From the NCBI GenBank assembly GCA_003141415.1, contig PLLX01000164.1:44030-108029 (forward strand): a DNA stretch of 64,000 nt. Direction: 5' to 3'. The position numbers and the translations under genes were made by a program. This stretch comes from Bacteroidales bacterium. GTDB lineage: Bacteria; Bacteroidota; Bacteroidia; Bacteroidales; VadinHA17. Position 1 is the stretch's first letter. Every line of letters begins with the position of its first letter. Below, piece by piece: positions 1,330 through 19,178 of this stretch. The notes under the pieces are model-generated. The model saw nothing but the letters and a program-made list of their open reading frames with translations, did no database searches and was not told the origin of the DNA.

Positions 1330-2748
1330 ATGAAACATTTGATAATTTCAATAGCATTAATTTTAATAACAGTCAATATTTTGTCTGCACAGGAAGTACC
1401 TTGGCAGGGAGTTTCAATAGATTTTAATCATGGTAAACTGAAAATATCAGAAAACAGACGTTTTTTGATTTTTGAAGATGGAACACCATTTTTCTATCTG
1501 GGTGATACCGGTTGGGAATTATTTCACCGTCTTAATAAGGATGAAGTTGAAAGGTACCTTGAAAACCGCCGTGCTAAAGGATTTACTGTAATTCAGGCAG
1601 TTGCTCTTGCCGAATTTGATGGTTTGAATATCCCAAATGCAGATGGCAATAAACCATTAATCAGCAATGATCCGCTTAAACCCAATGAAGCCTATTTTGC
1701 TTATGTCGACTGGGTGATTAAGAAAGCCGGGGAAAAAGGGATGTTTATTGGGCTTTTGCCGACATGGGGAGACAAAGTTGACAAGAAATGGGGTATTGGA
1801 CCGGTGATATTCAATAAAGAAAACGCATTCGGATATGGTCAGTGGATAGGAAATCGTTATAAAGATTTTCAGAATATTATATGGATAATTGGTGGAGACA
1901 GGGATGGCGGAGGTGATAATAAAGTTATATGGGACTCTCTTGCAGAAGGAATAAAATCGGTTGATAAAAATCACCTTATGACATTTCATCCGGGCGGGGA
2001 ACGTAGTTCTTCAGATTGGTTCCAGGACAGCAAATGGCTAGATTTCAATATGTGTCAGACCGGACATGGTCAGCGTAGTTATGCAATTTACAAAAGGTTA
2101 ATTGTTCGTGATTACGAACTGAAACCTATGAAACCATGCTTTGATGGTGAATCCCGATATGAAGATCACCCTGTCAACTGGAATCCCGATGTACTTGGCT
2201 GGTATAATGACGCCGATGTGCGACAGGCTCTGTATTGGAATCTTTTCAGCGGCTCATTCGGACATACATACGGTTGTCATCCTGTATGGCAGTTTCTGAC
2301 ACCTGTCAGAGAGCCTATTGGATTGGCACGTCACAACTGGTACGATGTGCTTGACCTGCCGGGAGCATGTGATCTTATTCATGCCCGAAGGTTATTAGAA
2401 TCGAGACCATTCCTATCGAGAGTGCCTGATCAGTCTTTAATTAGCCCTGCTTATTTCCCAGAAACAGATTATGTTGTTGCTACCCGGGGTGACGGATATG
2501 CATTTGTCTATTTCCCAACAGGATGGACTGCTGAGATTCAATTGGCTAAGATCGGAGCTAAATCTGTCACAGCTTACTGGTTCGATCCACGAAAGGGAGA
2601 AAGTAAGCTGATTGAAACATTCCCCGGAACAGGTACCCGTAAATTTACACCACCCACCGGTGGCAGAGGTAATGACTGGATCCTTATACTTGATGATACA
2701 TCGAAAAATTTCAAAGCTCCGGGATCCAAAGAGTTGATTATAAAATAA
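1330..2748 (+). CDS. DUF4038 / GH140-like glycoside hydrolase (apiosidase-type family), secreted
   Basis: 472-aa ORF with a signal peptide. DGTPFFYLGDTGWELFHRLNKDEVERYLENRRAKGFTVIQAV, LPTWGDKV and IIWIIGGDRD match my recollection of DUF4038/GH140 proteins. Confidence 0.75.
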   Translation: MKHLIISIALILITVNILSAQEVPWQGVSIDFNHGKLKISENRRFLIFEDGTPFFYLGDTGWELFHRLNKDEVERYLENRRAKGFTVIQAVALAEFDGLNIPNADGNKPLISNDPLKPNEAYFAYVDWVIKKAGEKGMFIGLLPTWGDKVDKKWGIGPVIFNKENAFGYGQWIGNRYKDFQNIIWIIGGDRDGGGDNKVIWDSLAEGIKSVDKNHLMTFHPGGERSSSDWFQDSKWLDFNMCQTGHGQRSYAIYKRLIVRDYELKPMKPCFDGESRYEDHPVNWNPDVLGWYNDADVRQALYWNLFSGSFGHTYGCHPVWQFLTPVREPIGLARHNWYDVLDLPGACDLIHARRLLESRPFLSRVPDQSLISPAYFPETDYVVATRGDGYAFVYFPTGWTAEIQLAKIGAKSVTAYWFDPRKGESKLIETFPGTGTRKFTPPTGGRGNDWILILDDTSKNFKAPGSKELIIK

Positions 2749-2821: not shown

Positions 2822-5002
2822 TTATTTTACCTTAATGATTTTTTGAAGGGAGAATGTTTTTCCTTCTTCTGTAATGCCCTGAATATTAATTATATAGTCT
2901 GATTTATTATCAGAACTCCAGAATTCAATTATGGCTTTACCATCTTTGTCAGGCTTAACAGATGGATTCCAATAAAGTGTATTTCTATAATCGGGTATCC
3001 TGCTTTCCAACGTTTTTTCAGATGAATAATCAGGGGAAACAAATGACCTGACGGGATCTATTACCCTGTAAGGCAGCCTGATCATATAGTCGGGAAGTGA
3101 GACACAACTAAATTCGCCCGACTTAGTAATTACATTTACTATTCCGGAGAAAATATATTTTCCAACCAGATACTTTTCCTTAATAACGTCAATTTTCTCA
3201 ACAATTTCAGGATCAAGATTAGCTATCATTGATGCATCTTTTATTATTACTCCATCTATCATTAAACATGGTGAGGTAACAAACTGATCATCATTAACAC
3301 GATAAGTTATTGATATTTCGTAAGTGGACTTTTTCTTTTTGAGAGATACGCCAGGTAAAAGTTCAAAAAAGATCTCATTCATAACAGGCAGGCTAATGTA
3401 ATCCGCCAGAATTAGTTCTATATCAGGTTTGCCATAAAATCTTAATGGTTTTAACGGTGGAAAAACCGGATTCAATGGGTCTCCAGGAGCAGGAATGCCA
3501 TAAATTTTCTGCACCTGATGGTTCACACTCAACTTTGATACGTGAGGAGGTATTGGCCGTGTGGTTGAATCAACAGATACACCAGACTGAAGATATTGAT
3601 CAGAAAATGATGATTCGATATTAATTTTGTGATTTTTGCTAACATCATCTGGCATGATTATTAAATCCTTAAGCCCTTCATCTATATGAGCATTGAAACT
3701 AAAATTACCTTCATTATCTGTTTTGGCATATCGAAATTCTGCCTCTTTACCAGGCGTACACATCAAAAGAATTTCGCCAGAATGAACTGCTTGCTGATCA
3801 GTGGTAAAAAGTTTTCCCAAAAGGAGGTGATCTTCTTTTTCAATCTGGTACTTATAATGAGGAAGATCCGTGGATAGTATATTTGCCCAGTCAATCCAGT
3901 TACTTCTGACATTTAAAAGCAGACTATCCATGATTTCAGTAGGAAGCTCTTTTATTTTTACACCGTTAACCGTATTCCGTCCTGCCAATCCGTACTCTGT
4001 ACCAAATACCAGGTAATCATCCATATACATGATTTCCATGTCATTTGTCAGGGGAGCAACTGATATACTTAGATTTGTTGAATTCAATAGGGCAGGTGCC
4101 TCATTTCCGGGGTCAATATCAACGGTGATTTTATTCCTCAAGCCACAACTATCCAAAGAATGAAGCGTAAGAAAATTAATTTTCTTTTCCGGTGTATAAA
4201 TAAATCTTTCACAAACCGGTTCACCTTTGGAATTAAATATTGTTATCTGATTAATTCCGGTACTAAGCACAGACTTGGGAATATTGATATTTGTTGTATC
4301 TTCTGTCATCTTTTCAGCACTTACATGGTTAATATTGCCATGAGTCTGAATAAAAATGTAAAAAAGGCTATTGTTTTCAGACCGGAATTTATTATCTGAA
4401 CTTATGATTATTTCCAGGTTATCTTGCTTGGAATTATTAACTTTAAGAATTACCCCGGTGTTTTTAATCTCCCGGGTAATATTATTATTATTTTCTTTCT
4501 TTATGAAATCACCTGTATTTAATTTCCCTTTAAAGACTTTGGGACTTATTGTATTATACACAGTAATGTCCTTCGCAAAGCAATTATACGGAAGAAAATT
4601 TTTCATCCAGCTGGTATAGGCCCTTATGGTATAGATGCCTGTACTTAAAGTGTCGGGGAGTACAATTTGTCCCGGACCTGATCCCTTATCGACAAGTATC
4701 CGTTTTTGTATGATTGGCCTGTTTTCGTTATTCAACAATTCAAAGTATACAATACGGCTATTTAGAGATGGCTTTAAACTCTGCCTGTCAATCAAATAAA
4801 CATTAAACCAGAAATCTTCTCCTGATATATACTCCTCTCTGTCAGTGTGAATATATATCTCCTCTCTCGGAACAGATTTACAGTATTTTAAGAATCTTTG
4901 ACTAAGATAATCAGTCATATTTAGTGGTGTCTGACCATAAATACTCTCCAGAAACAGGAGCTGTATCAGAAAAAGAATCGCAGTTTTTAATCTATTTATC
5001 AT
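2822..5002 (-). CDS. Secreted 726-aa protein with MG2-like, CarboxypepD_reg-like and TonB-receptor-plug-like segments but no beta-barrel; function unknown (cassette A)
   Basis: Signal peptide. N-terminal EEIYIHTDREEYISGEDFWFNVYLID is MG2/Ig-like. Central YAKTDNEGNFSF is prealbumin-like. C-terminal LPVMNEIFFELLPGVSL...LMIDGVIIKDASMIANLDPEIVEKIDVIKEKYLVGKYIFSGIVNVITKSG is plug-like. Paralogue of 12366-14552. Domain calls are by eye. Confidence 0.6.
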   Translation of the reverse strand: MINRLKTAILFLIQLLFLESIYGQTPLNMTDYLSQRFLKYCKSVPREEIYIHTDREEYISGEDFWFNVYLIDRQSLKPSLNSRIVYFELLNNENRPIIQKRILVDKGSGPGQIVLPDTLSTGIYTIRAYTSWMKNFLPYNCFAKDITVYNTISPKVFKGKLNTGDFIKKENNNNITREIKNTGVILKVNNSKQDNLEIIISSDNKFRSENNSLFYIFIQTHGNINHVSAEKMTEDTTNINIPKSVLSTGINQITIFNSKGEPVCERFIYTPEKKINFLTLHSLDSCGLRNKITVDIDPGNEAPALLNSTNLSISVAPLTNDMEIMYMDDYLVFGTEYGLAGRNTVNGVKIKELPTEIMDSLLLNVRSNWIDWANILSTDLPHYKYQIEKEDHLLLGKLFTTDQQAVHSGEILLMCTPGKEAEFRYAKTDNEGNFSFNAHIDEGLKDLIIMPDDVSKNHKINIESSFSDQYLQSGVSVDSTTRPIPPHVSKLSVNHQVQKIYGIPAPGDPLNPVFPPLKPLRFYGKPDIELILADYISLPVMNEIFFELLPGVSLKKKKSTYEISITYRVNDDQFVTSPCLMIDGVIIKDASMIANLDPEIVEKIDVIKEKYLVGKYIFSGIVNVITKSGEFSCVSLPDYMIRLPYRVIDPVRSFVSPDYSSEKTLESRIPDYRNTLYWNPSVKPDKDGKAIIEFWSSDNKSDYIINIQGITEEGKTFSLQKIIKVK

Positions 5003-5027: not shown

Positions 5028-6161
5028 TTATTTATCATCAACCCAGAAATCAGGTTTTACTTTTGTTCCTCTTAAAGTACAGTCAGCACATCCCTCATTA
5101 GTCGTGATTTCATAAAATGGCACGCATGGCGGGCCTCCACATTTATGGGCAAACAGAATCCAGGCAGTAATATTAACTCCCGGGAAATCAGGAGAGTATA
5201 CAGTATCAGTAATGCACTTGTTATATCTGTCTATAATACCTTCAAAATTATCTGTTATAAAAAGTCTTTTAGATGATTTGGCTGAAACACTAAAATAGCC
5301 CAACACCTTCTCAGAGGGATTCTCAACACAGTAAAGATTACTCGGAACAGAAGCAGGGATTATATCATAAAGACCTCCTACCTGTATTGCAATATTCTGA
5401 ATTTTTTCCCAATAGAAATATTCATCTGCATTCAGTGAATACTGATTTACTAAAATGCTGTACTTTCTTTTCAACCTGTCTGTGACATTTGTTATATAAT
5501 TTATAGGATAACTTTTTATCATGGCTTTATTAAAAGCAACTGTACTTTTAATATTTATTGAATGAGATTTATCTTTTATCCAGCATGTCTGATTTGGCAC
5601 ATCAAAAAGAAGTCTGAATTCCCATGTCTCTGAGAAATCCCATCTGTAATATTTGCATATATTTTCAGGATCATGAGTATCCAATTTAATCTGACAACCA
5701 TCAACTCCCTTAAAAAATCCAGCTGGTTTCTCAATAACTGTTTTTTCATAGTATATACTGTCAATAGGTGGAACTGGGACTATCTCCATCGGATATGATT
5801 CATAAGTAAGATTACCGGATTCAGAATTTGTCTTGATATGTAACGTATAAGATCGTCCTATTACTCCATAAAATGAAGATGGGGTCAGGTATGTTCCCGG
5901 AACTGATTCTGTGAGACTGACTACATTGCCAAGATTATCGGATATTGAAACGTTGCATCCACCAACGGGTTTGGCAGCAGTTACTTCCCCAGGCGGCAGT
6001 GATTTTGAAAGTTTAATAGTGTCAGTCTCGTGCTGATCTGTTATTAAACCCTGAACGACAAGAAGTTCCTTCTCCTCCTCAATCTGGGGAACAAATTGAG
6101 TTACACAACTACTTACCAGAAGTAAGATCAGCAAAAATATTATATGTTGCTTTTTTATCAT
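5028..6161 (-). CDS. DUF4249-family lipoprotein (cassette A, copy 2)
   Basis: The lipobox LLVSSC is followed by VTQFVPQIEEEKELLVVQGLITDQ...IKLSKS...GCNVSISDNLGNVVSLTE..PGTY...GRSYTLHI...VPPIDS. This is the pattern I associate with DUF4249. C-terminal GCADCTLRGTKVKPDFW is shared by all three full copies. Confidence 0.7.
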   Translation of the reverse strand: MIKKQHIIFLLILLLVSSCVTQFVPQIEEEKELLVVQGLITDQHETDTIKLSKSLPPGEVTAAKPVGGCNVSISDNLGNVVSLTESVPGTYLTPSSFYGVIGRSYTLHIKTNSESGNLTYESYPMEIVPVPPIDSIYYEKTVIEKPAGFFKGVDGCQIKLDTHDPENICKYYRWDFSETWEFRLLFDVPNQTCWIKDKSHSINIKSTVAFNKAMIKSYPINYITNVTDRLKRKYSILVNQYSLNADEYFYWEKIQNIAIQVGGLYDIIPASVPSNLYCVENPSEKVLGYFSVSAKSSKRLFITDNFEGIIDRYNKCITDTVYSPDFPGVNITAWILFAHKCGGPPCVPFYEITTNEGCADCTLRGTKVKPDFWVDDK

Positions 6162-6167
6162 AATCAG

Positions 6168-7361
6168 TTATTTATCTTCCCAGAAATCGGGTTTTACATT
6201 TGAACCACGTACTGTACAATCTGCACATCCCTTTTTATCGGTTAGGATTCTAAAGGGAGGAGTATAATTTGGTTCATCATCAAGAATCCAGACAGTTATG
6301 CCCAATCCCGGAGGGTCAACATAAGGGATTGTATCTGTAGGGCAATCGCCATATCTATAAATAATCCCTTCAAAATTATCTTTAATGAATAGCCTCTTTG
6401 AGGATTTTGCCGAAACACTGAAGTATCCTAATACCTTTTCGGTCGGATCCTCTATGCATTTGATATTGCTTTGGACTGAGGCAGGAATTACATCATAAAG
6501 TCCTCCAACCTGTACAGCAATATTCTGTATTTTTTCCCAATAAATATACTCATCTTCATTCAAAGAATATTGATTCACCAGGATGCTGTATTTTCTTGTT
6601 AATCTGTCGGTAATATTTGTTATATAATTTATTGGGTACCTTGTTATCCTAGATTCATCAAATGCAACGGTGCTTTTAATATTTATTGAATGTGATTTAT
6701 CTGATATCCAGCATGTTTGATTAGGAACAGGAAAGAGTAGCCTGAGTATCCATGTTTCTGCAAAATCCCACCTGAAATATCGGCATTTACTTTCCGGATC
6801 ATAAGTGTTCAGGTAAATCTGGCAGCCGTCAATACCTCTGAAAAACTCAGCAGGATTCGCCTTTTCAATAACTGTTTTTTCATAATATAAACTATCAATA
6901 GGAGGAACAGGTTTCATCTCCATTGGATTTGACTCGTAATTAAGATTTCTGGTCACAGAATTTGAATTCACATGCAGAGTATAAAAGCGTCCGATTACAC
7001 CTTGAAAAGATGATGGGGTAACGTATGTTCCTGGAACTGTTTCTGACAAATAGACAATATTGCCAAGATTATCGGATATAGTTACACTGTATCCATGTAC
7101 AGGTTTTTCTTTATCTATCTGTCCCAGAGGCAATGATTCTGAAAGCTTAATTGTATCGGTTTCGTGCTGATCAGTTATTAAACCCTGAACGACGAGAAGT
7201 TCTTTCTCCTCCTCGATCTGAGGAACAAATTGAGTAATACAACTATTCAGGAGAACTAAGAACAGAATAAAAATAAATTTTTGACTGCGTCTGACTCGTT
7301 CCGACAAATCGGAACCCGGCGAAGCCAAAATCGATGAATATCTGCGAATATCTGATATCAT
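6168..7361 (-). CDS. DUF4249-family lipoprotein (cassette A, copy 1); start codon uncertain
   Basis: Paralogue of 5028-6161 and 14578-15732. The ATG at 7361 gives an atypically long region before the LLNSC lipobox. An in-frame TTG about 18 codons downstream would give a classical lipoprotein signal (MSERVRRSQKFIFILFLVLLNSC). Confidence 0.7.
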   Translation of the reverse strand: MISDIRRYSSILASPGSDLSERVRRSQKFIFILFLVLLNSCITQFVPQIEEEKELLVVQGLITDQHETDTIKLSESLPLGQIDKEKPVHGYSVTISDNLGNIVYLSETVPGTYVTPSSFQGVIGRFYTLHVNSNSVTRNLNYESNPMEMKPVPPIDSLYYEKTVIEKANPAEFFRGIDGCQIYLNTYDPESKCRYFRWDFAETWILRLLFPVPNQTCWISDKSHSINIKSTVAFDESRITRYPINYITNITDRLTRKYSILVNQYSLNEDEYIYWEKIQNIAVQVGGLYDVIPASVQSNIKCIEDPTEKVLGYFSVSAKSSKRLFIKDNFEGIIYRYGDCPTDTIPYVDPPGLGITVWILDDEPNYTPPFRILTDKKGCADCTVRGSNVKPDFWEDK

Positions 7362-7366
7362 TTCAT

Positions 7367-10099
7367 CTAAAAATCAAAACTACAGGTAACAGATGGTATT
7401 GCTCTGCCAAAAACCGACAGTTTGTAACCGGTATATAAATCTCCCACCTTCTTGAAATATATTGAATAAACATTTTGTCTTCCCAAAAGATTGTATACTG
7501 AGAATGTCCAGTTTGGATGTACCATTCTATGTGATCTTAAATTTCCGTTCACCTGGAAAGAGAGATCCAGCCTCGAATAATCAGGGATCCTGTATTTATT
7601 CCTGTCGGAGTAGTGGACCAGTATGTCATCATACATCTGATATGTTGCAACCGGATATGTTATTGGCCGCCCAGTGCTCCATGTATAGTTCGATGAAATA
7701 CTGAACCTGCGGGAGAAGATATAATTAAACGTGATAATAAGATCATTCGGCTTATCAAAATTGGCAGGGAACCATTTGCCTGAATTAATAATTTCTTCAC
7801 TGAATGAGGTAACACTTTTAATAAATGTTCTTGAATAGGTATAGCCAATACTGTACCTGAGTTTTCCTTCGGTCTTTTTAAGTACAAGTTCCAGCCCGTA
7901 AGCTTTTCCTAATACATTTACTATATCTTTCTCAATATTTGCATCCATGATGAAGTCAGTACCTCCTTTAAAGTCAATCATATTCCTTATTGCCTTATAG
8001 TAAAGTTCGGCTGAAGCCTCGATGTTATTTCTGAAGAGCATTTCATAAAATCCGACCGCTACCTGGTCACCGATCTGTGGTTTCACGTAAGAATCACACA
8101 ACTTCCATGTATCAGTTGGTGATATTGATGTGGTATTTGAAAGCAGGTGCAGGTATTGCCGTGTTCTGTTATAATTGATCTTGAAAGAATTCTTGTTTGT
8201 TATCCTGAAATTCAGTGAGACTCTGAACTCAGGGCCGCCGTATTTACTCACAATCTCCCATGGTTTATAATTCAGTGTATCTGTAATCGTTGATAAGCTT
8301 TTTGAATATCCTGGATTATAAACCATTACACTCTGCGGACCAAATGTAAAGAAAGAAGACAATCGCATTCCTGCATTTACTGAAAGGAAATCGGTAAGCT
8401 GAAATTTATCATCGATATATAAGGCTCCCTCCCATGCCTTTTCTTTCCGGAGCGTATTAGGGACTACCAGTGATGAATCATTATATGGCTGATAGCTGCC
8501 AGGCACAACTGCGTATCGTGTAAGATCGAGACCAAAATTGATCTCATTTCTGCCTAGAAACCAGTTGAAGTCTGCCTTCAGTCCTGTGCTGTTTAATTTA
8601 TGGGAAAGAATAAAAGCCTCCGTTGTAAGATACTGACTCGAAATATCATAACTATAAGAGCTGTTATTAACTGAAAATGCTGAGAAGAACCTGCTGTTGA
8701 AGAAATGCCTCCACTTTAAAGCCAGGATAGTATTGTTATAACCGTAAGTTGTGTCAGAATTAAATTTGAAGCTATCGTGGCTTACATAAGCAGAGATATC
8801 TATTTTATTATTCTTATTAAAGTCATAGGTTATTTTGCCATTCAGGTCATAGAATGATGCCCTGCTATTGTGAAGTTCGGGGTTCTTTAACAATCCGAAT
8901 ATCCAGTTTGAATACGTGCTTCGAGCCGTGAAGATATAAGTGAGAGTATCTTTTATCAGCGGACCTTCCAACGATATATGGGCTGTAATAGGGCTTATAC
9001 CAACATTCCCTTCAAATTCTTTTCTGTTTCCTTCTTTTGATCCGATGTCGAGAACGGAGGAAATCCGCCCTCCATATCGGCTGGGGATTCCACCTTTATA
9101 TAATGTAACATCCTTTATTATATCGGAGTTGACTGCAGAAAAGAATCCAAAGAAATGTGAGGAATTGTATATAGGTGCCCCATAGAGAAGAATCAGGTTC
9201 TGGTCAGCAGACCCACCGCGTACGTTAAAACCGGCGGAGCCCTCTCCAACAGACTGAACACCAGGAATTAAGAGAACACTTTTTATTATATCTGATTCCC
9301 CCATCGATGTTGGCAACAACTTAAAAGAAGCTATGTTGATCTTTTCTGCTCCAACCTCAAATCGCTGGAGTGTTATACTTTTCTGTGCTGATACAACCGC
9401 TTCTTTTAAAGGAATTAAAACACTCTTCATATCAACATTTAGTTCCCCGGTTCCGTAAAGATTCAGATTGACAGTTTTCTCTCTCATACCGATGAATGAA
9501 AACTGGAGAAAGTGAATTCCCCTGGGTAAAGTCAGGGAGTAATAGCCAAATTCATTTGAAATTGTTCCCAGTGAGATTTTCTGAATGAAGACAGTTACAC
9601 CGGATACAGGTTCCTTAGTTTCTGAATTTCTGATATATCCTGAAAGGACAACATTTCCGGGTTTGTTCTTTTCAACCGGGTTCCCGACCTCAACAGATGC
9701 ATTTCCCTCGGTATGCTGGTTTTCACTAGTACCTCCAAATTCACCCGGCGGCAGGAAATTATTACCTTTTTCCGATGGCGCAACTAAAACTTTAATCGCA
9801 AACCTATTGGTTATCACTATATTTCCTGATTCTTCAATGATATAGTAAAGTGAGGTTCCTTTAAAAAGGTTATCGAGAAGGCATGATAAGCCCGAACAAT
9901 CCGGATAGTCCCCAATCTTCAGGTCGCGCACCCACTCCTCTTTATAGAAATATTTCACAGCAAAAAGCTTTTCAGTCCTTGCTGCAAATTGCTTGAAGGT
10001 AAGGTCCTTGAAATTCTCCGGCAATGTATATTTCTCCTGTGCTCTCAGCTTGTGAGATAATAGCAATAACAAAACCAGCAGAAGGATCTTTAATTTCAT
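7367..10099 (-). CDS. TonB-dependent receptor with N-terminal STN-like domain and CarboxypepD_reg domain (not obviously SusC/RagA type) (cassette A)
   Basis: 910 aa with a signal peptide. STN-like segment: DLTFKQFAARTEKLFAVKYFY...LLDNLFKGTSLYYIIEESGNIVIT. CarboxypepD_reg: VLSGYIRNSETKEPVSGVTVFI..TISNEFGYYSLTLPRG. Plug: MGESDIIKSVLLIPGVQS..FNVRGGSADQNLILLYGAPIYN...YKGGIPSRYGGRISSVLDI. Terminal aromatic residue ...SFDF. Confidence 0.9.
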   Translation of the reverse strand: MKLKILLLVLLLLLSHKLRAQEKYTLPENFKDLTFKQFAARTEKLFAVKYFYKEEWVRDLKIGDYPDCSGLSCLLDNLFKGTSLYYIIEESGNIVITNRFAIKVLVAPSEKGNNFLPPGEFGGTSENQHTEGNASVEVGNPVEKNKPGNVVLSGYIRNSETKEPVSGVTVFIQKISLGTISNEFGYYSLTLPRGIHFLQFSFIGMREKTVNLNLYGTGELNVDMKSVLIPLKEAVVSAQKSITLQRFEVGAEKINIASFKLLPTSMGESDIIKSVLLIPGVQSVGEGSAGFNVRGGSADQNLILLYGAPIYNSSHFFGFFSAVNSDIIKDVTLYKGGIPSRYGGRISSVLDIGSKEGNRKEFEGNVGISPITAHISLEGPLIKDTLTYIFTARSTYSNWIFGLLKNPELHNSRASFYDLNGKITYDFNKNNKIDISAYVSHDSFKFNSDTTYGYNNTILALKWRHFFNSRFFSAFSVNNSSYSYDISSQYLTTEAFILSHKLNSTGLKADFNWFLGRNEINFGLDLTRYAVVPGSYQPYNDSSLVVPNTLRKEKAWEGALYIDDKFQLTDFLSVNAGMRLSSFFTFGPQSVMVYNPGYSKSLSTITDTLNYKPWEIVSKYGGPEFRVSLNFRITNKNSFKINYNRTRQYLHLLSNTTSISPTDTWKLCDSYVKPQIGDQVAVGFYEMLFRNNIEASAELYYKAIRNMIDFKGGTDFIMDANIEKDIVNVLGKAYGLELVLKKTEGKLRYSIGYTYSRTFIKSVTSFSEEIINSGKWFPANFDKPNDLIITFNYIFSRRFSISSNYTWSTGRPITYPVATYQMYDDILVHYSDRNKYRIPDYSRLDLSFQVNGNLRSHRMVHPNWTFSVYNLLGRQNVYSIYFKKVGDLYTGYKLSVFGRAIPSVTCSFDF

Positions 10100-10109
10100 A
10101 GGTAAAGGT

Positions 10110-10826
10110 CTATTGGTTCAGACTATCGTAATACCGGATAACAGGAATAAAGCTTTCGGGATTTTTTTCTGTAATGTCCAGTTTATTTTTTTTAATGAAA
10201 CTTTTAATCAAAGCTTTATCTTCAATTAAAACCTTCAATAAATCACTTTTACGCCTGATCGTATAAACTATATTATCTTTCACAAAACAGATCCGGATTA
10301 ACTGATAAAACTTATCATATTTACCTTCAACGGCGAGCTTTCCAATTTTTTTAGTGTACTTAAGATAAAGGCCTGTCCTGCCTTTATACAAAACATTAAA
10401 ATATCTTTGTGATCCTTTCAAACTATCATCCTGCAACTTGATAAACTGATATGTCTTATTTTGAAAGGAAATAGAAAAACTGTCAACCATCTCCTTGTTC
10501 AGTTGCAATATTCCTCCCGGGTCGACCGGGGTCAGGATTTCATCAGCAAATAAATCATACTTAAGAGGGATATTTGTAAATGTTTTACCTCTAACTGACA
10601 ATGATCCCGGCAGAAACTCTTTTGAAAAAAGAAATTGATCGTCCTGCACCAGATAATAAATGTTCCTCCATAATCTGCCATTATAAAGAACCTGATTTTC
10701 TTTAATTGAATCCTGCAAACCTGTATTAATGTAGAGTTGCCCGTAATAGCCTCGGGCGATGCCAAAAAGGTCGGACCCGGTAAAAAAGACAAAAAAGATA
10801 AGGATTAGTATAATAAATCTGCGCAT
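10110..10826 (-). CDS. Secreted 238-aa protein of unknown function, first gene of cassette A
   Basis: Signal peptide. Paralogue of 18465-19178, with shared blocks ENQ(V/I)LYNG(R/K)(L/V)WRN.YY, DQFLFSK, ILQLNKEMVDSFS and PESFIPVIRYYD. I recognise no known family. Confidence 0.6.
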   Translation of the reverse strand: MRRFIILILIFFVFFTGSDLFGIARGYYGQLYINTGLQDSIKENQVLYNGRLWRNIYYLVQDDQFLFSKEFLPGSLSVRGKTFTNIPLKYDLFADEILTPVDPGGILQLNKEMVDSFSISFQNKTYQFIKLQDDSLKGSQRYFNVLYKGRTGLYLKYTKKIGKLAVEGKYDKFYQLIRICFVKDNIVYTIRRKSDLLKVLIEDKALIKSFIKKNKLDITEKNPESFIPVIRYYDSLNQ

Positions 10827-10934: not shown

Positions 10935-11888
10935 TCAGATTAGTTGATACTTTCTCAGATAGCCGCTAATGAAATCCGTATCCTTTTTAAGTTTCCTGAC
11001 AATTATTTCCTGTTGCTGAATCAGTGAAAGCTTTTCTTCACCTTGTTCGAGCAACGGATACTCTATATGCAGAGTTATTGGAGCAAGTATATTGAGTTCC
11101 TTCACCATTTTAAAGTAGAGGTCCCAGTCAATCATCCCTTCACCCAGAGGGACAGAGACAGGTTCTGGTTTGCCTCCTGCAGTTTTCCACATAAAATCTT
11201 TTATTGCCAGAGTTTTTATATGGCTGGCTATCAGACGCATACCGATCATCCATGTATCGGTACCTTCTACCATTGCATGCCGTACATCATATTGACTGCC
11301 TAAAAATTCCGGTTGAAAATCTCGAAGAAGTTCATGCAAATCCCATACCGGTCCGCCTACCCATTCTCCGGAGTGGTTCTGATAACCACCATGAATCTTA
11401 TATTTCCGGTTAAGTTCAGCTATATCAATTAAACTGGTTCTGTATTTCTGAAGTGTCTCCCATATACCACTTTTATAATCATATTCAAACCAACCCAGTC
11501 TATAGTATTTTACACCGGAATCTGAAGCGGTCCTTAATATATTTTCAGTATAAGGATCTGCAGCAGAAACTATTCCTGTAACTATCATGTCAGTTACCAG
11601 ATGGAATTTACCAGCCGTGTGAATAAGTTTCGGTAAAGATGTTTCAACCGCTCCCGGCTCAACTTTTCCTCCCGGACGAACTGTCAGGTCGATTCCTCCA
11701 ATTCCTGATCTGGCAATACAATCGCATATAAAATCAAAATCATAGTTATCAAGAGGCTTAGAAAACAAACTTATTGGGTAGCGGACTTTACCCTGTTCAG
11801 GCAGCCACGATTTAAGGTCCGATAATAAAGGTACAGCAATACTGCCAACTGCCATTGTCGAAATGAATTTTCTCCTGTTCTGTATCAT
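10935..11888 (-). CDS. Tat-exported sugar phosphate isomerase/epimerase-like protein (xylose isomerase-like TIM barrel)
   Basis: The N-terminus MIQNRRKFISTMAVGSIAVP is a twin-arginine signal. The body has the pattern of AP_endonuc_2 / xylose-isomerase-like TIM barrels (GGIDLTVRPGG, YYRLGWFEY, GGYQNHSGE, ITLHIEYP). Confidence 0.7.
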   Translation of the reverse strand: MIQNRRKFISTMAVGSIAVPLLSDLKSWLPEQGKVRYPISLFSKPLDNYDFDFICDCIARSGIGGIDLTVRPGGKVEPGAVETSLPKLIHTAGKFHLVTDMIVTGIVSAADPYTENILRTASDSGVKYYRLGWFEYDYKSGIWETLQKYRTSLIDIAELNRKYKIHGGYQNHSGEWVGGPVWDLHELLRDFQPEFLGSQYDVRHAMVEGTDTWMIGMRLIASHIKTLAIKDFMWKTAGGKPEPVSVPLGEGMIDWDLYFKMVKELNILAPITLHIEYPLLEQGEEKLSLIQQQEIIVRKLKKDTDFISGYLRKYQLI

Positions 11889-12365: not shown

Positions 12366-14552
12366 TTATCTCTTTACCTTAATGATTTTTTTAATCGTGA
12401 ATGTTTTGCCTTCCGGCGTAATGCCCTGAATATTAACTTCTAAGTCAGAAACAAAATCTGATGTCCAAAACTCAACTCTGGCTACACCCTCCTTATCCGG
12501 TTTAACAGATGGATTCCAATAAAGTGTATTTCTGAAATCAGGGATCCGGCTTTTCTTCAATTCCACCGATGAATAATCAGGCGACTTAAAGGAACATACA
12601 GGATCTATCACTCTGTAAGGTAATCTGATAGCATAATCGGGAAGAGTTGCATTGCTGAAATCTCCGGCCTTTGTTATGATGTTCACTAATCCGTAGAATA
12701 AGTAATCACCAACAGAATATCTTCCTCTTATTACATCTATTTTTTCAACCAGTTCAGGATCAATTCCGGCTATAATAGATGGATCTTTAACCGCTACACC
12801 ATCAATAAACAACCCGGGAGGTATATCGAATGGTTTATTATTGTTATCTGGATCTGCTATTGTTATCTCATAACTAGATTTTTTACTCTTCAAAGAGACA
12901 CCGGCTAAAAGTTCAAAGAAGACTTCCTGCATTACAGGTAAAGTAATGTAATCTTTCATATTCAATTCAATATCCGGCTTTCCATAAAATCGTTTGTTCC
13001 TTGGTATTGTAATTAATGGAGTCAGAGTGTCTCCAACGGAAGAGGTGCCATATATTTTCCTTACCTGATGATTTACGCTCCACGATGAAATATAATCAGG
13101 AATAGTTTTTTTGCTTGAATCAACTGATATATCTGATTTAATATACTGATCCGAAAATGGGGATTCAATATGCAGAGATTGGTTTTTGGTAACAACATCA
13201 GGCTGGATAATTAACTCTTTAACCTTTTCATCAATATGAATTCTGAAGCTGAAATTCCCTTCCTTATCTGTTTTGGCATATTGAAAAACAGCTATTTTAC
13301 CGGGAGGTGATAATAATACAAACTTATCAGAATCTCCTGCTTTCGTATTACCGGTCAAAAGCTTTCCTGACAGGTAATGATCATCTTTTTCGATCTGGTA
13401 CTTATATACAGGTAGTTCATCTGCCAGAATTACGTTCCAGTCTATCCAGTTGCTTTTCACAGTTTGAAGAAGGCTATCAATGACTTCGGGAGTAATCTTG
13501 TTATCTTTTTGGTTTTTTAGTTCACTCCCATGAAACAATCCAAATTCTGTACCAAAGACCAAATAATCATTTATATCCATTGTATAATGATTATTTGTTA
13601 CAGGTGCAACTGAAATACTTAAATTTGTTGAATTCGCTGCTGTGGTTAATCCACTCCCAAACTTCAAATCCAAAGATATTTTATTCCTGAGCCCGGAGCT
13701 GTCGGCCGAATGAATAGTTATAACAGGATTCACCTTATCAGGTGTGTATATGAACCTTTCATCTACGGGCTGGCCTTTTGAATTAAAAATCGTTATCTGA
13801 TTGATACCGGCTGACAACTGTTTTTTAGGGATAACTATCTTCGTGTATTCATCACTAATCCCCTCAGAACTTACACGGTTAATATTTCCATGTGTCTGAA
13901 TAAATAAATAAAACTGATTACTATTCTCAGTGCGGTATTTTTGATTGGTTACTACATCGATTTCCAGAACATCTGGTTTTAAATTATCTACGTTCAGAGT
14001 CAGGCCGGTATTTGCAGGGAGGGGAAAATTATTGGTGTTTACACCTCCCGTAAATATTTTCCCATAATTCTTTTTTTCTTTTAGTGCCCGGAAACTAAAT
14101 GCATTATAAATATGAATATCCTTCGTGAAGCAATTATAAGGAAGAAAATTTTTCATCCAACTGGTATATGCCCTGATTGTATATATACCGGTACTTAATG
14201 TGTCAGGCAGAACAATTTGTCCGGGACCAAAACCACCATCAAGCCAGATCTTCTTTTGCACAATCGGACGGTTTTCAGAATTAAGAAGTTCGATGTATGC
14301 AATTTTACTCTCCGATGAAGGTTTTAAACTTTTTCTGTCAATCAAATAGATATTAAACCAAAGATCTTCTCCTGAAATGTACTCATCCCTGTCAGAGTGA
14401 ACATATATTTCTTCTCTCGGAACTGATGTGGTATAATTTAGAAACTTTTTACTTAGATAATCTGTCATATTCATTGGCACCTGACCACATATTCCTTGCA
14501 GAAACAAGATATGTATCAGAAAAAGAATCGACGGTTTTAGTTTTATTATCAT
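12366..14552 (-). CDS. Secreted 728-aa MG2-like / CarboxypepD_reg-like / plug-like protein without barrel; function unknown (cassette B)
   Basis: Paralogue of 2822-5002. Identical runs include GPGQIVLPDTLSTGIYTIRAYTSWMKNFLPYNCF. Plug-like segment: LPVMQEVFFELLAGVSL...FIDGVAVKDPSIIAGIDPELVEKIDVIRGRYSVGDYLFYGLVNIITKAG. Confidence 0.6.
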   Translation of the reverse strand: MIIKLKPSILFLIHILFLQGICGQVPMNMTDYLSKKFLNYTTSVPREEIYVHSDRDEYISGEDLWFNIYLIDRKSLKPSSESKIAYIELLNSENRPIVQKKIWLDGGFGPGQIVLPDTLSTGIYTIRAYTSWMKNFLPYNCFTKDIHIYNAFSFRALKEKKNYGKIFTGGVNTNNFPLPANTGLTLNVDNLKPDVLEIDVVTNQKYRTENSNQFYLFIQTHGNINRVSSEGISDEYTKIVIPKKQLSAGINQITIFNSKGQPVDERFIYTPDKVNPVITIHSADSSGLRNKISLDLKFGSGLTTAANSTNLSISVAPVTNNHYTMDINDYLVFGTEFGLFHGSELKNQKDNKITPEVIDSLLQTVKSNWIDWNVILADELPVYKYQIEKDDHYLSGKLLTGNTKAGDSDKFVLLSPPGKIAVFQYAKTDKEGNFSFRIHIDEKVKELIIQPDVVTKNQSLHIESPFSDQYIKSDISVDSSKKTIPDYISSWSVNHQVRKIYGTSSVGDTLTPLITIPRNKRFYGKPDIELNMKDYITLPVMQEVFFELLAGVSLKSKKSSYEITIADPDNNNKPFDIPPGLFIDGVAVKDPSIIAGIDPELVEKIDVIRGRYSVGDYLFYGLVNIITKAGDFSNATLPDYAIRLPYRVIDPVCSFKSPDYSSVELKKSRIPDFRNTLYWNPSVKPDKEGVARVEFWTSDFVSDLEVNIQGITPEGKTFTIKKIIKVKR

Positions 14553-14577: not shown

Positions 14578-15732
14578 TTAGTTATTCTCTGTCCAGAAAT
14601 CAGGTGGTACATTTGTACCTCTTACAGTGCAATCATAACAACCCTTGGTACGAGTGATTACTTGAAAGCCTGGAGGTGGTGTCGGCTGATCTATGATTAC
14701 CCATACCCAGATATTCAGATTTGGAATAGCGGCACCGCCGAAAATGGTATCAGCAATACACACAGCATCAGTATATGGGTTGACCACTCCTGCAAAATGA
14801 TCTCTTATGAAAATTCTTTTGGATGATCTGGCTGAAACGCTGAAATAACCCTGTACTTTTTCATTTGGATCATCAAGACAATAAACATTGCTGGGAACAG
14901 CTGATGGTATCATATCATAAAGGCCGCCTACCTGTTCTGAAAGATTTTGCAGTTTCTCCCAATAAAGGTATTCATCCTCATTCAGGGAATATTGGTTCAC
15001 CAAAATACTGTATTTTACTCTCAACCTGTCTGTTTCGTTCGAAATAAAGTTTAAGGGATACTGTTCGATCTTATCTTCCGCAATAATAGACGTGTTCTTG
15101 ATATTAATCATGTCAGAATTATCTGATATCCAGCATATCTTGTTTGGAACAGTATATGGAAGAATGAATTCCCATGTTTCAGTAAATTCCCAACGGTAAA
15201 ACTTACAATGGTTTGTAGGATCATGGGTATTTAAGTAAACCTGGCAGCCCTCCTGACTTGCTGAGTTGCCGGAACCTTCCTGAATAGTAACTTTCTGGTA
15301 ATATATGCTGTCGATTGGTGGGACAGGTTTCATCTCAATTGGGTCTGATTCGTAATTATGATTATTATCAGACGCGTTTATATTGATATGCAACGTATAG
15401 AATCGTCCTACTACACCCTGAAATATTGAAGGGTCGGTAACATATGTCCCGGCAACTGTCTCTGATAAACTGAATGTGTTGTTAAGATCATCGGAAATAG
15501 TGACAGTGCATCCCTTAACAGGTGTTGCAACGTTCCTTGTTCCAAGAGGAAGGGATTTTGACAGTTTAATAGTATTTGCACCCGGTTGGTCTGTTATCAA
15601 ACCTTCAACAACAAGTAATTCCTTATCCTCATTTGTTTTGGGAATAAACGGCGTTATACAACTGTTATCAAAAACCAATAATGATAGTAATAATAATTGC
15701 CTGATATGCTTCATAAATAATTTAAAAGTCAA
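14578..15732 (-). CDS. DUF4249-family lipoprotein (cassette B)
   Basis: Lipobox VFDNSC and the same block structure as 5028-6161 and 6168-7361. C-terminal GCYDCTVRGTNVPPDFW. The annotated start overlaps the receptor stop by 11 nt; an internal Met (MKHIRQ) avoids the overlap. Confidence 0.7.
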   Translation of the reverse strand: MTFKLFMKHIRQLLLLSLLVFDNSCITPFIPKTNEDKELLVVEGLITDQPGANTIKLSKSLPLGTRNVATPVKGCTVTISDDLNNTFSLSETVAGTYVTDPSIFQGVVGRFYTLHININASDNNHNYESDPIEMKPVPPIDSIYYQKVTIQEGSGNSASQEGCQVYLNTHDPTNHCKFYRWEFTETWEFILPYTVPNKICWISDNSDMINIKNTSIIAEDKIEQYPLNFISNETDRLRVKYSILVNQYSLNEDEYLYWEKLQNLSEQVGGLYDMIPSAVPSNVYCLDDPNEKVQGYFSVSARSSKRIFIRDHFAGVVNPYTDAVCIADTIFGGAAIPNLNIWVWVIIDQPTPPPGFQVITRTKGCYDCTVRGTNVPPDFWTENN

Positions 15733-18460
15733 AACTAAAAGTTACTGATGGAATAGCTCTTCCAAACACTGACAATTTGTACCCATTAACAAATTCTCCC
15801 TGATTTTTAAAATAAATTGAGTAAACATTTTCTCGTCCAAGAAGATTATATATCGAGAATGTCCAGTTTGGATGAGCAATTTTATGCGACTTCAGGTTCC
15901 CGCTTACTTTTAAAGAAAGATCAAGCCGCGAATAATCAGGAATTCTGTATTCATTGCGATCCGAATAAGTTACGAGCAATTTATCGCTGATGTCATATGT
16001 TGCAATAGGGTATGTTATTGGACGGCCCGTACTGTAAGTATAGTTTGAAGAGAAACTGATGCGGCGGGAGAAGAGATAATTAAATGTAACAACAAGATCA
16101 TTTGGTTTATCAAAATTAGCAGGGAACCATTTTCCTGAATTAATAATTTCATCACTGAAGGTACCAAGGCTTTTTATGAAGGTCCTGGAATATGTATACC
16201 CGATACTATAGCGAATTTTTCCTTCGGTCTTTTTAAGTACAAGCTCTAAACCATAAGCTTTACCCTTAACATTTACGATATCTTTTTCAATATTGTCATC
16301 CATTATCAGATTTGTACCTCCCTTGAAATCAACCATATTCTTTATTGTCTTATAGTATAACTCGGCAGAAGCCTCGAAATTATTTTTAAATAACAATTCA
16401 TAAAAGCCAATTGCTACCTGGTCACCTATCTGGGGTTTCAGATAATAATCACAGAGTTTCCAGGTATCTGTCGGAGCTATTGAGGTTGAATTCGAAAGCA
16501 GATGCAGGTATTGTCGTGTTCTGTTATAATTTATTTTAAAAGAATTCTTGTCTGAAATACGGAAATTCAATGACACTCTTGGCTCCAGTCCTGCATATTT
16601 GCTGGTGACTCCACCAGACTTGAAGTTAAGTGTGTCGGTAATTGTCGAAGTACTTTTTGAATAATCGGGATTGTAGATCATAACCGATTGTGGACCAAAA
16701 GAGTAATAAGAGGACATTCTCATTCCGACATTAACCGACAGAAAGTCTGTCAGAATAAATTTGTCTTCAACGTATAATGCTCCTTCCCAGGCACGTTCTT
16801 TTTCGATTGTACGAGGTATAACAAGTGATGAATCGTTGTTAGGAAGATAACTTCCAGGCAAAACATCATATCTGGTAAGGTCGAGACCAAAATTAATCTC
16901 ATTTCTTCCAAGGAACCAGTTAAAATCTGCTTTAAAGCCGGTACTATTAACTTTATGGGAAAGAACAAATGCTTCGTTTGGAATAGCCTGGCTTGAAATA
17001 TTGTAATTATAAGAACTGTTATTTATTGAAAGTGAAGAAAAAAACCGGCTTGTGAAAAAATGACGCCACTTCAAAACAAAAATATTATTATTATAACTGT
17101 AAACAGTATCGGAGTTGAACCGGAAGGAATCATGACTGGTGTATGCTGAAAAGTCTATTTTATTGTTTTTATTTAAGTCATAAGTTATCTTGCCGTTCAA
17201 ATCATAAAATGAGGCTCTGCTATTATGAAGTTCGGGGTTATTTATCAATCCGAATATCCAGTTTGAATAGGTTGTTCTTGCAGTAAGTATATAGGTAAGA
17301 GTATCTTTTATTATCGGGCCCTCCAGAGACACGTGAGCCGTTATAGGACTTATCCCGGCACTGCCTGCAAATTCATTCCTGTTTCCTTCTTTTGTTCCTA
17401 TGTCAAGTACTGAAGAGATCCTTCCGCCATAACGGCTTGGTATACCACCTTTATATAATGTGACATCCTTTATTATATCGGAATTGACTGCCGAAAAGAA
17501 TCCAAAAAAATGGGAAGAATTATAAATCGGTGCCCCATATAGAAGAATAAGGTTCTGATCTGCAGAGCCACCTCTTACGTTAAAACCGGCAGAGCCCTCT
17601 CCGACCGACTGAACACCAGGTATCAACAAAACGCTTTTAATAATATCAGATTCCCCCATCGATGTTGGTAAAAGCTTGAAGGATGTAATGTTGATCTTCT
17701 CAGCACCTACCTCAAACCGCTGAAGTGTAACACTCTTCTGGGCAGAAACAACAGTCTCCTTAAGAGGGATAAGCACACTATTCATCTCAACATTCATTTC
17801 ACCCGCTCCGTTAAGATTCAGATTTATAGTTTTTTCTCTCATCCCGATAAACGAAAACTGGACAACATGAATTCCACGAGGGACTGTCATAGTATAATAT
17901 CCATACTCATTGGAGATTGTTCCTATGGAAAGTTTCTTAATAAATACTGTTACTCCTGATACTGCTTCTTTAGTATCCTTGTTTGTAATATATCCTGATA
18001 GAGTTACATTCCCTGGATTATTTTTTTCGGCTGGATTTCCGATTTCCACCGATGCATTTCCTGCCAAGTGCTGGTTCTCTGCCGAGCCTGAAAAATCTGA
18101 GGGAGGGAGGAATTTATTGTTTTTTTCCACCCCTGTATTTGAAACCTTAACTGCATAATTATTTGTAATCACTACATTCCCAAATTCATCAATATAATAA
18201 TACAGAGATGTTCCTCTCAGAAGATTGTCCATAACACATTGAAGAGTGGTACAATCAGGATAATCTCCCAACTTCAGATCTTTCACCCAGTCATCTATAT
18301 AATAGAATTTTACAGGAAGGATACTTTCAACTTTTTTAACAAAATCTGTAAACGAAATATCCTTATACTGTGATGATATTCCGTATTTTTCCTGAGCACC
18401 AAGATTTATTGATAAGAAGAATAATAATATAAGAATATGGATCTTTAATTTCATAAACAC
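15722..18460 (-). CDS. TonB-dependent receptor with STN-like and CarboxypepD_reg domains (cassette B)
   Basis: 912 aa and collinear with 7367-10099. The 95-residue run FKLLPTSMGESDII...GRISSVLDIG is identical in the two proteins. Confidence 0.9.
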   Translation of the reverse strand: MFMKLKIHILILLFFLSINLGAQEKYGISSQYKDISFTDFVKKVESILPVKFYYIDDWVKDLKLGDYPDCTTLQCVMDNLLRGTSLYYYIDEFGNVVITNNYAVKVSNTGVEKNNKFLPPSDFSGSAENQHLAGNASVEIGNPAEKNNPGNVTLSGYITNKDTKEAVSGVTVFIKKLSIGTISNEYGYYTMTVPRGIHVVQFSFIGMREKTINLNLNGAGEMNVEMNSVLIPLKETVVSAQKSVTLQRFEVGAEKINITSFKLLPTSMGESDIIKSVLLIPGVQSVGEGSAGFNVRGGSADQNLILLYGAPIYNSSHFFGFFSAVNSDIIKDVTLYKGGIPSRYGGRISSVLDIGTKEGNRNEFAGSAGISPITAHVSLEGPIIKDTLTYILTARTTYSNWIFGLINNPELHNSRASFYDLNGKITYDLNKNNKIDFSAYTSHDSFRFNSDTVYSYNNNIFVLKWRHFFTSRFFSSLSINNSSYNYNISSQAIPNEAFVLSHKVNSTGFKADFNWFLGRNEINFGLDLTRYDVLPGSYLPNNDSSLVIPRTIEKERAWEGALYVEDKFILTDFLSVNVGMRMSSYYSFGPQSVMIYNPDYSKSTSTITDTLNFKSGGVTSKYAGLEPRVSLNFRISDKNSFKINYNRTRQYLHLLSNSTSIAPTDTWKLCDYYLKPQIGDQVAIGFYELLFKNNFEASAELYYKTIKNMVDFKGGTNLIMDDNIEKDIVNVKGKAYGLELVLKKTEGKIRYSIGYTYSRTFIKSLGTFSDEIINSGKWFPANFDKPNDLVVTFNYLFSRRISFSSNYTYSTGRPITYPIATYDISDKLLVTYSDRNEYRIPDYSRLDLSLKVSGNLKSHKIAHPNWTFSIYNLLGRENVYSIYFKNQGEFVNGYKLSVFGRAIPSVTFSFDF

Positions 18461-18464
18461 AAGT

Positions 18465-19178
18465 CTATCTGCTTATACCATCATAATACCTGATTACAGG
18501 AATAAAACTTTCTGGTACCTTTTTTGAAATCTTTAACTTACTTTTCTTTATAAAAGCTTTAATTTGGATTTTATCTTTATCAAAAACTTTTAATAGCTCA
18601 CCTTTAGTGGCAATCTGATGAATTATTCCGTCTTTCAGAAAATAGATCTTATAGGTCCGATAAAACAAATCGTACTTATCATCAACAGCAAGCAATTGAA
18701 TTTCTTTCTTATACTTAATATACAAAGCTGATTTCCCTTTATATAATTCATTAACAAAACCTTTAAGACCTGGCAGGCTATCCTCCCGGATATTTACAAA
18801 CTTGTAATTCTGAAAGCCAAAAACCACAGAAAAACTGTCAACCATTTCCTTGTTAAGTTGCAGAATAGAACTAAGATTTGTCGGGGTTATGATCTCATCG
18901 TTATAGATATCATAATTGATGCTTAAATTCTTATATGTTTTACCATTAATTGTCAATGAACCGTGTAAATAATCTTTGGAAAAAAGGAATTGGTCTCCCT
19001 TGACATTATAATATAGATTTCGCCAAACTTTGCCATTATAAAGAATCTGATTCTCTTTAAGGGGATCCTGCTGACTTGATTTATAAGGGTGTGGCTCACC
19101 AAAACATGGTACAGCATTTAGACCAGAACCCGCAAAAATGATAAATAAGAATATGTATAGGAGATTTGTTCTGTTCAT
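18465..19178 (-). CDS. Secreted 237-aa protein of unknown function, first gene of cassette B
   Basis: Signal peptide; paralogue of 10110-10826. Confidence 0.6.
   Translation of the reverse strand: MNRTNLLYIFLFIIFAGSGLNAVPCFGEPHPYKSSQQDPLKENQILYNGKVWRNLYYNVKGDQFLFSKDYLHGSLTINGKTYKNLSINYDIYNDEIITPTNLSSILQLNKEMVDSFSVVFGFQNYKFVNIREDSLPGLKGFVNELYKGKSALYIKYKKEIQLLAVDDKYDLFYRTYKIYFLKDGIIHQIATKGELLKVFDKDKIQIKAFIKKSKLKISKKVPESFIPVIRYYDGISR

Follow-up and report, generated by a model that had tools for sequence, protein, structure and literature searches.

A predicted barrel-less homologue of the TonB-dependent transporter plug, combined with macroglobulin-type domains, in a conserved four-gene cassette of Bacteroidota

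The window analyzed here is a 64,000-nucleotide stretch of Bacteroidales DNA, in which positions are counted from the window start and the G+C content along the sequence is 33 to 39%. It carries two related gene cassettes, A and B, both on the minus strand, with intergenic gaps of 5 to 25 bp and a common gene order: a protein of about 238 amino acids (aa), an STN-type TonB-dependent transporter, one or two DUF4249 lipoproteins, and a multidomain protein, referred to here as the MG2/plug protein, which is the subject of this study. The MG2/plug proteins of the two cassettes share 62% identity along their entire length; the original prediction had assigned them the same layout, and every motif that it quoted is found in both translations. 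From the N to the C terminus, the protein consists of a signal peptide, an MG2 domain, a further sandwich, a helical linker, a CarboxypepD_reg-like domain, a plug-like domain, and a terminal sandwich of about 90 aa. The two genes and the domains of the cassette A protein are as follows (ORF, open reading frame).

2822..5002, minus strand: MG2 / CarboxypepD_reg-like / plug-like protein, last gene of cassette A (ORF, 726 aa plus stop).
12366..14552, minus strand: paralogue of the MG2/plug protein, last gene of cassette B (ORF, 728 aa).
4934..5002, minus strand: signal peptide, aa 1 to 23, predicted type I cleavage with Gln at +1 (sequence and alignment of 105 relatives).
4553..4867, minus strand: MG2-type macroglobulin β-sandwich, aa ~46 to 150 (Pfam, PDB profile match, and Foldseek).
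4103..4456, minus strand: second β-sandwich, macroglobulin-like, aa ~183 to 300 (nine strands of high predicted local distance difference test [pLDDT] score; Foldseek alignments to the A2M family along the whole chain).
3833..4096, minus strand: linker of mixed strands and helices with invariant W369 and W372, aa ~303 to 390 (DSSP of the model and conservation).
3569..3832, minus strand: CarboxypepD_reg-like (transthyretin/prealbumin-like) sandwich, aa ~391 to 478, which includes YAKTDNEGNFSF (hhalign and model strands).
3101..3439, minus strand: plug-like domain, aa ~522 to 634 (hhalign, Pfam Plug, PDB matches of a subprofile, and a local database test).
2825..3082, minus strand: C-terminal β-sandwich, aa ~641 to 726 (model strands and conservation).

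The plug normally sits inside the barrel of TonB-dependent transporters. The stretch near residues 540 to 640, which had been described as having the spacing of such a plug, was aligned by hhalign with 79 plug regions of the SusC/RagA type; aa 540 to 632 matched them with a probability of 97.1% (E value of 7.5e-11) over 91 collinear columns, whereas the four other domains of the MG2/plug protein, aligned in the same manner as negative controls, did not exceed 0.6%. Pfam Plug (PF07715) was matched by 37 of 54 member fragments at an E value of ≤1 (best, 6.8e-5), and no other family was matched by more than one of them; the window fragment alone scored 14.7 bits, under the gathering threshold of 23.9. 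A PDB search with a profile of aa 520 to 660 yielded 11 matches at an E value of <10, and in 10 of these the match is to the conserved plug core of a TonB-dependent transporter (SusC homologues, RagA, and the colicin I receptor Cir), with marginal individual E values of 0.02 to 1.3. The plug profile was also run against 1,939 ORFs collected locally from the window and 80 related loci; the top three matches outside the family (E values of 5.6e-7, 7e-5, and 0.0055) were all true Pfam Plug proteins (E values of 2e-12 to 6.5e-20). In addition, aa 580 to 632 of the paralogue at 12366-14552 weakly match model positions 59 to 112 of TIGR01783 in NCBIfam. The conserved residues of the domain read FYGKPD ... 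MEEVF.E.VPGV ... DGVP ... DP..V.KIDV ... G..F.GIVN.IT, and the AlphaFold2 model of this region contains the expected helix and strands with pLDDT values of >90; the Foldseek list of the whole chain holds A2M-type matches throughout. Judged by these profile comparisons, the domain at aa ~522 to 634 is shown to be homologous to the transporter plug, as the original prediction had proposed.

Toward the neighboring receptor's own plug, the hhalign similarity is collinear and weak (P = 0.03), indicating that the plug-like domain is no recent copy of it; an iterated plug profile started from that receptor gave matches that all lie inside that receptor family. The best match of the plug profile outside the MG2/plug family (E value of 5.6e-7) is a 234-aa ORF at one of the related loci (L055:4562-5266, plus strand), located directly upstream of the first gene of the cassette. 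It has a CarbopepD_reg domain and a full Pfam Plug (E value of 2.2e-12) without a barrel, and it is either a real gene or a shortened receptor.

The original prediction had counted about 90 residues after the plug-like domain and judged them too few for a barrel. The actual tail is ~94 residues long and is modeled as a small sandwich of about six strands, and neither Pfam nor NCBIfam gave a barrel-family match. No TonB box is conserved either: aa 502 to 521, which precede FYGKPD (aa 522 to 527), are variable and gapped among the 105 relatives, while canonical short CarbopepD_reg + Plug proteins carry an LDEVVVTG TonB box at the equivalent position. Because both barrel and TonB box are absent, the MG2/plug protein is no TonB-dependent transporter. 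The last three-fifths of the protein mirror the N-terminal module of SusC/RagA, in which CarboxypepD_reg is followed by the plug, minus TonB box and barrel. On the alignments, the tandem of CarboxypepD_reg-like and plug-like domains is thus shown to be a barrel-less copy of a SusC/RagA-type N-terminal module, with the TonB box apparently lost.

The first partner of this tandem had been called a prealbumin-like segment. Its hhalign comparison (aa 380 to 505) with CarbopepD_reg_2 of the neighboring receptor gave a probability of 77% (E value of 2e-5), the model places seven strands at aa 391 to 478, and the transthyretin-like PDB match of the family profile is weak (E value of 0.3); “prealbumin-like” is a fair label for aa 391 to 478. 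The sandwich that follows the tandem contains SR.PDFRNTLYW.P, the most conserved motif of the family, and the PDFRNTLYW part may resemble the F.ETW.W motif of A2M. Pfam matches to this sandwich are weak and mixed (A2M, PF00207, in 6 of 54 members with a best E value of 0.01; CopC in 7 of 54), and no convincing family was found for it.

The protein is also related to macroglobulins. Pfam MG2 was matched by 58 of 61 family members (best E value of 2.6e-11), with the window proteins themselves below threshold at 22.7 and 23.9 bits against 32.8 (aa 49 to 129). The family profile matches the MG2 domains of complement C3 and alpha-2-macroglobulin in the PDB with an E value of 1e-5; a single-sequence PDB search with the window protein gave no useful match. 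A2M_BRD and bMG3 were matched somewhere in just two and one of the 61 members, respectively, and the linker at aa ~303 to 390 had no family match. An earlier AlphaFold2 model from 43 close homologues, with pLDDT values of <50 over aa 471 to 654, was replaced by one from the 105 diverse relatives, which has a mean pLDDT of 91.1 and a predicted template modeling (TM) score of 0.90. The best 50 listed Foldseek matches of this model in the PDB are all alpha-2-macroglobulin, complement C3/C4/C5, or CD109 (E values of 4e-13 to 2e-9). Together with the Pfam and PDB matches, they bear out the MG2 claim, so that both assignments for which profile tests had been suggested, MG2 and plug, were upheld. The global TM scores to A2M proteins are low (0.11 to 0.21), which points to an array of macroglobulin-type sandwiches and not to a full macroglobulin. 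The CxEQ thioester motif was found in 0 of 105 relatives, and the model has no alpha/alpha toroid, its helical part being only ~85 aa of mixed helices. The model thus shows a protein predicted to fold as a compact array of macroglobulin-type β-sandwiches; by its sequence it is not a thioester macroglobulin, yet it has a homologue of a macroglobulin domain.

Both window proteins begin with a basic n-region and a hydrophobic core, and the predicted +1 position is Gln in 97 of the 105 relatives (24 to 68% identity in the alignment), in agreement with the signal peptide noticed earlier. Gln at +1 fits the “Q-rule” for signal peptidase I substrates of Bacteroidota. The suggested checks for lipidation and for a type IX secretion system (T9SS) tail revealed neither signal: no cysteine lipobox is present in either window protein, a lipobox-like motif occurs in just 3 of the 105 relatives, and no T9SS C-terminal sorting domain of the TIGR04183/TIGR04131 type was matched in NCBIfam at an E value of ≤0.1. 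The C termini differ across the family, and no transmembrane segment or known signaling domain was detected in the window protein with Pfam, NCBIfam, or the model. Surface exposure in Bacteroidota normally requires a lipid anchor plus an export signal, or the T9SS. The MG2/plug protein is therefore predicted to be exported by a type I signal peptide without a lipid anchor and, because it lacks lipobox, T9SS tail, and barrel, to remain in the periplasm, where it may be attached to the outer membrane.

The partner genes of the two cassettes are listed below.

10110..10826, minus strand: first gene of cassette A, 238 aa, with an N-terminal hydrophobic segment; conserved as first gene in distant taxa too.
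18465..19178, minus strand: first gene of cassette B, 237 aa; product 51% identical to that of 10110-10826.
7367..10099, minus strand: TonB-dependent transporter of cassette A, 910 aa; STN-like N terminus, Pfam CarbopepD_reg_2 and Plug.
15722..18460, minus strand: TonB-dependent transporter of cassette B, 912 aa; Pfam CarbopepD_reg_2 and Plug.
6168..7361, minus strand: DUF4249 lipoprotein, copy 2 of cassette A (Pfam E value of 1.3e-42).
5028..6161, minus strand: DUF4249 lipoprotein, copy 1 of cassette A, putative transporter lid (Pfam E value of 8.7e-44; lipobox LLVSSC).
14578..15732, minus strand: DUF4249 lipoprotein of cassette B (Pfam E value of 1.2e-45).

The MG2/plug gene had been described as lying next to a complete receptor. 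The two do belong to the same tight cassette; they are not adjacent, however, since one or two DUF4249 genes lie between them. These DUF4249 genes, the conserved ~238-aa first gene, and the likeness of the CarboxypepD_reg-plug tandem to the SusC/RagA N-terminal module had escaped the original prediction. The cassette A transporter has a barrel region of about 550 aa and ends in F, and the PF00593 barrel was detected in a transporter homologue at another locus (L077). Among 14 N-terminal fragments of transporters, 6 matched STN (best E value of 4e-6). Both window transporters are STN-like at the N terminus, and no pair of extracytoplasmic function (ECF) sigma factor and anti-sigma factor was found in or between the cassettes. 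A promoter and terminator scan gave counts no different from the shuffled expectation.

The association of these genes was followed in a locus scan of one genome per GTDB species, which returned 455 stretches with relatives, of which 74 loci were kept. All three partners lie upstream on the same strand in 50 of the 55 family genes that have at least 5.2 kb of upstream DNA; among the remainder, two are without DUF4249 and three without the first gene. The gap between DUF4249 and MG2/plug genes has a median of 24 bp, and 11 of the 74 loci contain at least two cassettes. The close relatives of the MG2/plug protein were all found in metagenome-assembled genomes of Bacteroidales sampled from fens, peat, lakes, and soil, and the same four genes recur at 25 to 28% identity in Pontibacter cellulosilyticus, a Fulvivirgaceae isolate, a Ferruginibacter genome, and a further metagenome lineage, where the flanking genes are entirely different. 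The cassette is conserved across the phylum Bacteroidota, from Bacteroidales to Cytophagales and Chitinophagales. Over the same range the ~238-aa first gene is kept at 23 to 28% identity; the window proteins of 237 and 238 aa have no Pfam, NCBIfam, or PDB match, and they represent an unnamed family tied to STN-type transporters.

The family defined by the MG2/plug protein is large. Among 1.84 billion cluster representatives (clusters at 50% identity), its profile matched 16,093 relatives at an E value of ≤0.001 and 5,701 at an E value of ≤1e-30, in length classes of about 590, 720, and 800 aa. In the source records they go by “hypothetical protein,” “Macroglobulin domain-containing protein,” or “MG2 domain protein.” The name “Plug domain-containing protein” is given to a few members (Spirosoma horti, Hymenobacter koreensis), and PF07715 is precomputed for two, indicating that automatic annotation had already caught the plug in some members. 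Full-text literature searches found no paper on the family, on the MG2 + plug combination, or on barrel-less plugs, and the 120 homologue matches listed in a search for a Bacteroides thetaiotaomicron orthologue beside BT2173 included no Bacteroides entry. The free-standing plug, which the original prediction had called unusual, does occur outside a barrel; in view of 16,093 clusters, some of them already annotated as Plug, it is less unusual than supposed. The MG2/plug family is an uncharacterized, very widespread putative accessory component, with domains that databases had already flagged in some members.

For about 33 residues after the lipobox, the two DUF4249 copies of cassette A, at 5028-6161 and 6168-7361, are almost identical (TQFVPQIEEEKELLVVQGLITDQHETDTIKLS), which suggests recent duplication or gene conversion of the pair. 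Just downstream of the MG2/plug paralogue, an ORF of 119 aa at 11900-12259 (minus strand) matches only the first ~60 DUF4249 positions (E value of 1.1e-5). At several related loci (e.g., L015, L020, L022, and L037), the MG2/plug gene has a larger DUF4249 ORF behind it, so that the 119-aa ORF looks like a truncated remnant.

Several enzymes surround the cassettes.

1330-2748, plus strand: apiosidase-like enzyme.
19323-20720, minus strand: GH29 alpha-L-fucosidase.
24359-25711, minus strand: GH29 alpha-L-fucosidase.
27368-29794, plus strand: GH2 enzyme.

They form a region that resembles a polysaccharide utilization locus (PUL) without a SusC/SusD pair. The recurrent neighbors among 83 related loci are GH29 fucosidases (18), xylose-isomerase-like TIM barrels (16), apiosidase-like enzymes (9), and GFO/IDH/MocA oxidoreductases (7). 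In the window, a xylose-isomerase-like TIM-barrel protein (AP_endonuc_2) with a twin-arginine-like N terminus (NRRKFIS) is encoded between the cassettes at 10935-11888 (minus strand). The recurrence of TIM-barrel and GFO/IDH/MocA proteins may be a sign that sugars are processed oxidatively in the periplasm, and because the cassettes lie among fucosidases and an apiosidase-like enzyme, the substrate in this genome is probably glycan derived. Farther away, a 713-aa ORF at 48557-50698 (minus strand) has no Pfam family at an E value of ≤0.001; it lies just beyond a possible exopolysaccharide-type cluster at ~34 to 45 kb, with genes for a sugar transferase, an asparagine synthase, and a tyrosine-kinase-like protein (GNVR/AAA).

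Taken as a whole, these results favor a reading in which the MG2/plug protein is a periplasmic accessory protein, the fourth subunit of a TonB-dependent uptake module that is conserved as a set of four genes. We give this reading a probability of roughly one-half; its architecture and operon parts are near certain, whereas the mechanistic part is weak. As the conserved last gene of the cassette, it would encode a transporter subunit or a dedicated helper, and the synteny in 50 of 55 relatives strongly supports a functional link to the receptor. The protein could act on its partner transporter from the periplasmic side, with the macroglobulin scaffold presenting the plug-like domain as a surface for binding or docking; its exposed plug loops might receive the imported substrate, or the protein might modulate the transporter from below. 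Without a TonB box, the plug-like domain would presumably not be pulled or energized by TonB. A narrower version is unlikely: a soluble periplasmic “second plug” in trans that docks under or into the partner barrel after the resident plug leaves, or that takes over the cargo.

Several points weigh against this assignment as an uptake subunit. The proposed tie between protein and transporter comes from gene context, not from physical contact, and the periplasmic location would be a default drawn from missing sorting signals. The plug-like domain is nearer to SusC/RagA plugs than to the plug of the receptor beside which it is encoded. The substrate guess is limited to this subfamily, since the genes around the cassette change from class to class. 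Moreover, papers on DUF4249 lids make no mention of MG2 or macroglobulin (bioRxiv 10.1101/2023.03.17.533168, PMC11003636).

Among the alternatives, a surface role of the kind played by glycan-binding proteins in SusC/D systems, with sandwiches and plug loops capturing substrate outside the cell, would suit the PUL-like neighborhood of fucosidases and an apiosidase-like enzyme, the Ig-like sandwich arrays that are typical of surface binding proteins, and a gene located directly after that of the putative surface lid. The sorting signals argue otherwise: the window protein has no lipobox, no T9SS match, and no barrel of its own, and exposure on Bacteroidota cells normally takes one of the two export routes described above. 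A surface glycan-binding role, which the original prediction had also considered, is therefore a poor fit, and we regard it as doubtful. The STN-like partner transporter, the lack of a sigma/anti-sigma pair in the cassette, and the description of BT2172 as a signal-transduction transporter (bioRxiv 10.1101/2025.06.24.661302) would be accounted for if the MG2/plug protein replaced the anti-sigma contact of the STN domain and coupled substrate occupancy to a periplasmic response. We consider this rather improbable, given that the protein lacks a detected transmembrane segment or known signaling domain, that the ~238-aa first-gene protein is an equally good candidate, and that ECF sigma genes occur near some distant loci without being conserved.

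The remaining two explanations concern the domains themselves. MG2 homology and a list of best Foldseek matches made up of alpha-2-macroglobulin, complement, and CD109 might suggest a small periplasmic protease trap of the alpha-2-macroglobulin type, its adjacency to a transporter being incidental. A chain of 726 aa with a short helical region, however, leaves no room for thioester, CUB, and receptor-binding domains; with the missing CxEQ motif, the low global TM scores, and the near-universal cassette linkage, such a trap is very improbable. Still less credible is a chance or convergent resemblance to the plug in what would be merely a β-rich linker domain. The subthreshold Pfam score of the window protein, the marginal PDB E values, and the poor alignment with the neighboring receptor's plug would be expected in that case, but the 91 collinear columns at 97.1% probability with near-zero controls would not, nor would the recurrence of Plug as the only family among the fragments, the agreement of 10 of 11 PDB matches on the same conserved core, or the fact that some members exceed the cutoff at which databases annotate a Plug domain.

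In gut and soils alike, Bacteroidota take up nutrients mainly through TonB-dependent transporters, and the DUF4249-type systems, recently proposed to use a non-SusD lid, are indicated here to be a four-gene unit. One of its two overlooked genes encodes a genuine plug homologue outside any barrel, represented by more than 16,000 sequence clusters. To find a predicted plug fold in such a place, within a unit that the literature treats as a gene pair, is surprising, and the idea lends itself to direct testing. Were the protein to contact the transporter, outer membrane import would seem to include a periplasmic step so far missed; were it to act as a second plug in trans, an unrecognized periplasmic hand-over or gating step would be added to TonB-dependent transport of Bacteroidota, with the ~238-aa protein as a further new component. 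Even with a mundane role, the proteins now labeled “hypothetical protein” can be given a defined domain architecture and assigned to an operon.

Compared with known systems, the MG2/plug protein combines parts of two. With the SusC/RagA plug (PF07715; e.g., PDB 5t3r, a SusC homologue, and 6sli, RagA), it shares a core of a helix followed by PGV, DGVP, DP..IE.I.V, and a G..GVI.I.TK strand, as well as a CarboxypepD_reg-type domain ahead of the plug. It differs from SusC/RagA in having neither the 22-strand barrel nor a conserved TonB box, in the replacement of the GPAS/YGS motif by Y..G..F.G, and in the location of the plug-like domain near the C terminus of a soluble multidomain protein. Short database entries named “TonB-dependent receptor plug domain-containing protein” likewise describe products with a plug and no barrel. 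However, the six short CarbopepD_reg + Plug proteins that were read keep the TonB box (mostly LDEVVVTG-like), several continue beyond the plug, and such proteins come mostly from short contigs, which suggests that they are truncated SusC N termini and not a dedicated family. The best structural matches are members of the alpha-2-macroglobulin/C3 family (Salmonella A2M, 4u48; Escherichia coli ECAM, 5a42), which share the MG2-type and further macroglobulin-like sandwiches and whose bacterial members are also exported to the periplasm; unlike these, the MG2/plug protein has less than half the length, lacks the thioester motif and the thioester, CUB, and receptor-binding domains, and bears a plug-like domain. 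As for the cassette, the nearest known system is BT2172/BT2173 of Bacteroides thetaiotaomicron, in which the DUF4249 protein BT2173 was proposed as the lid of the non-SusC transporter BT2172 on the basis of cofitness and AlphaFold-Multimer (Price et al., bioRxiv 10.1101/2023.03.17.533168; PMC11003636); the two genes are cofit (bioRxiv 10.1101/2023.03.17.533168), and their locus is without SusD (bioRxiv 10.1101/2025.06.24.661302). That module contains the same pair as the window cassettes, a CarbopepD_reg_2 + Plug transporter followed by DUF4249. It has been described as a two-gene unit, whereas the window cassettes comprise four genes, the ~238-aa protein being encoded at the start and the MG2/plug protein at the end.

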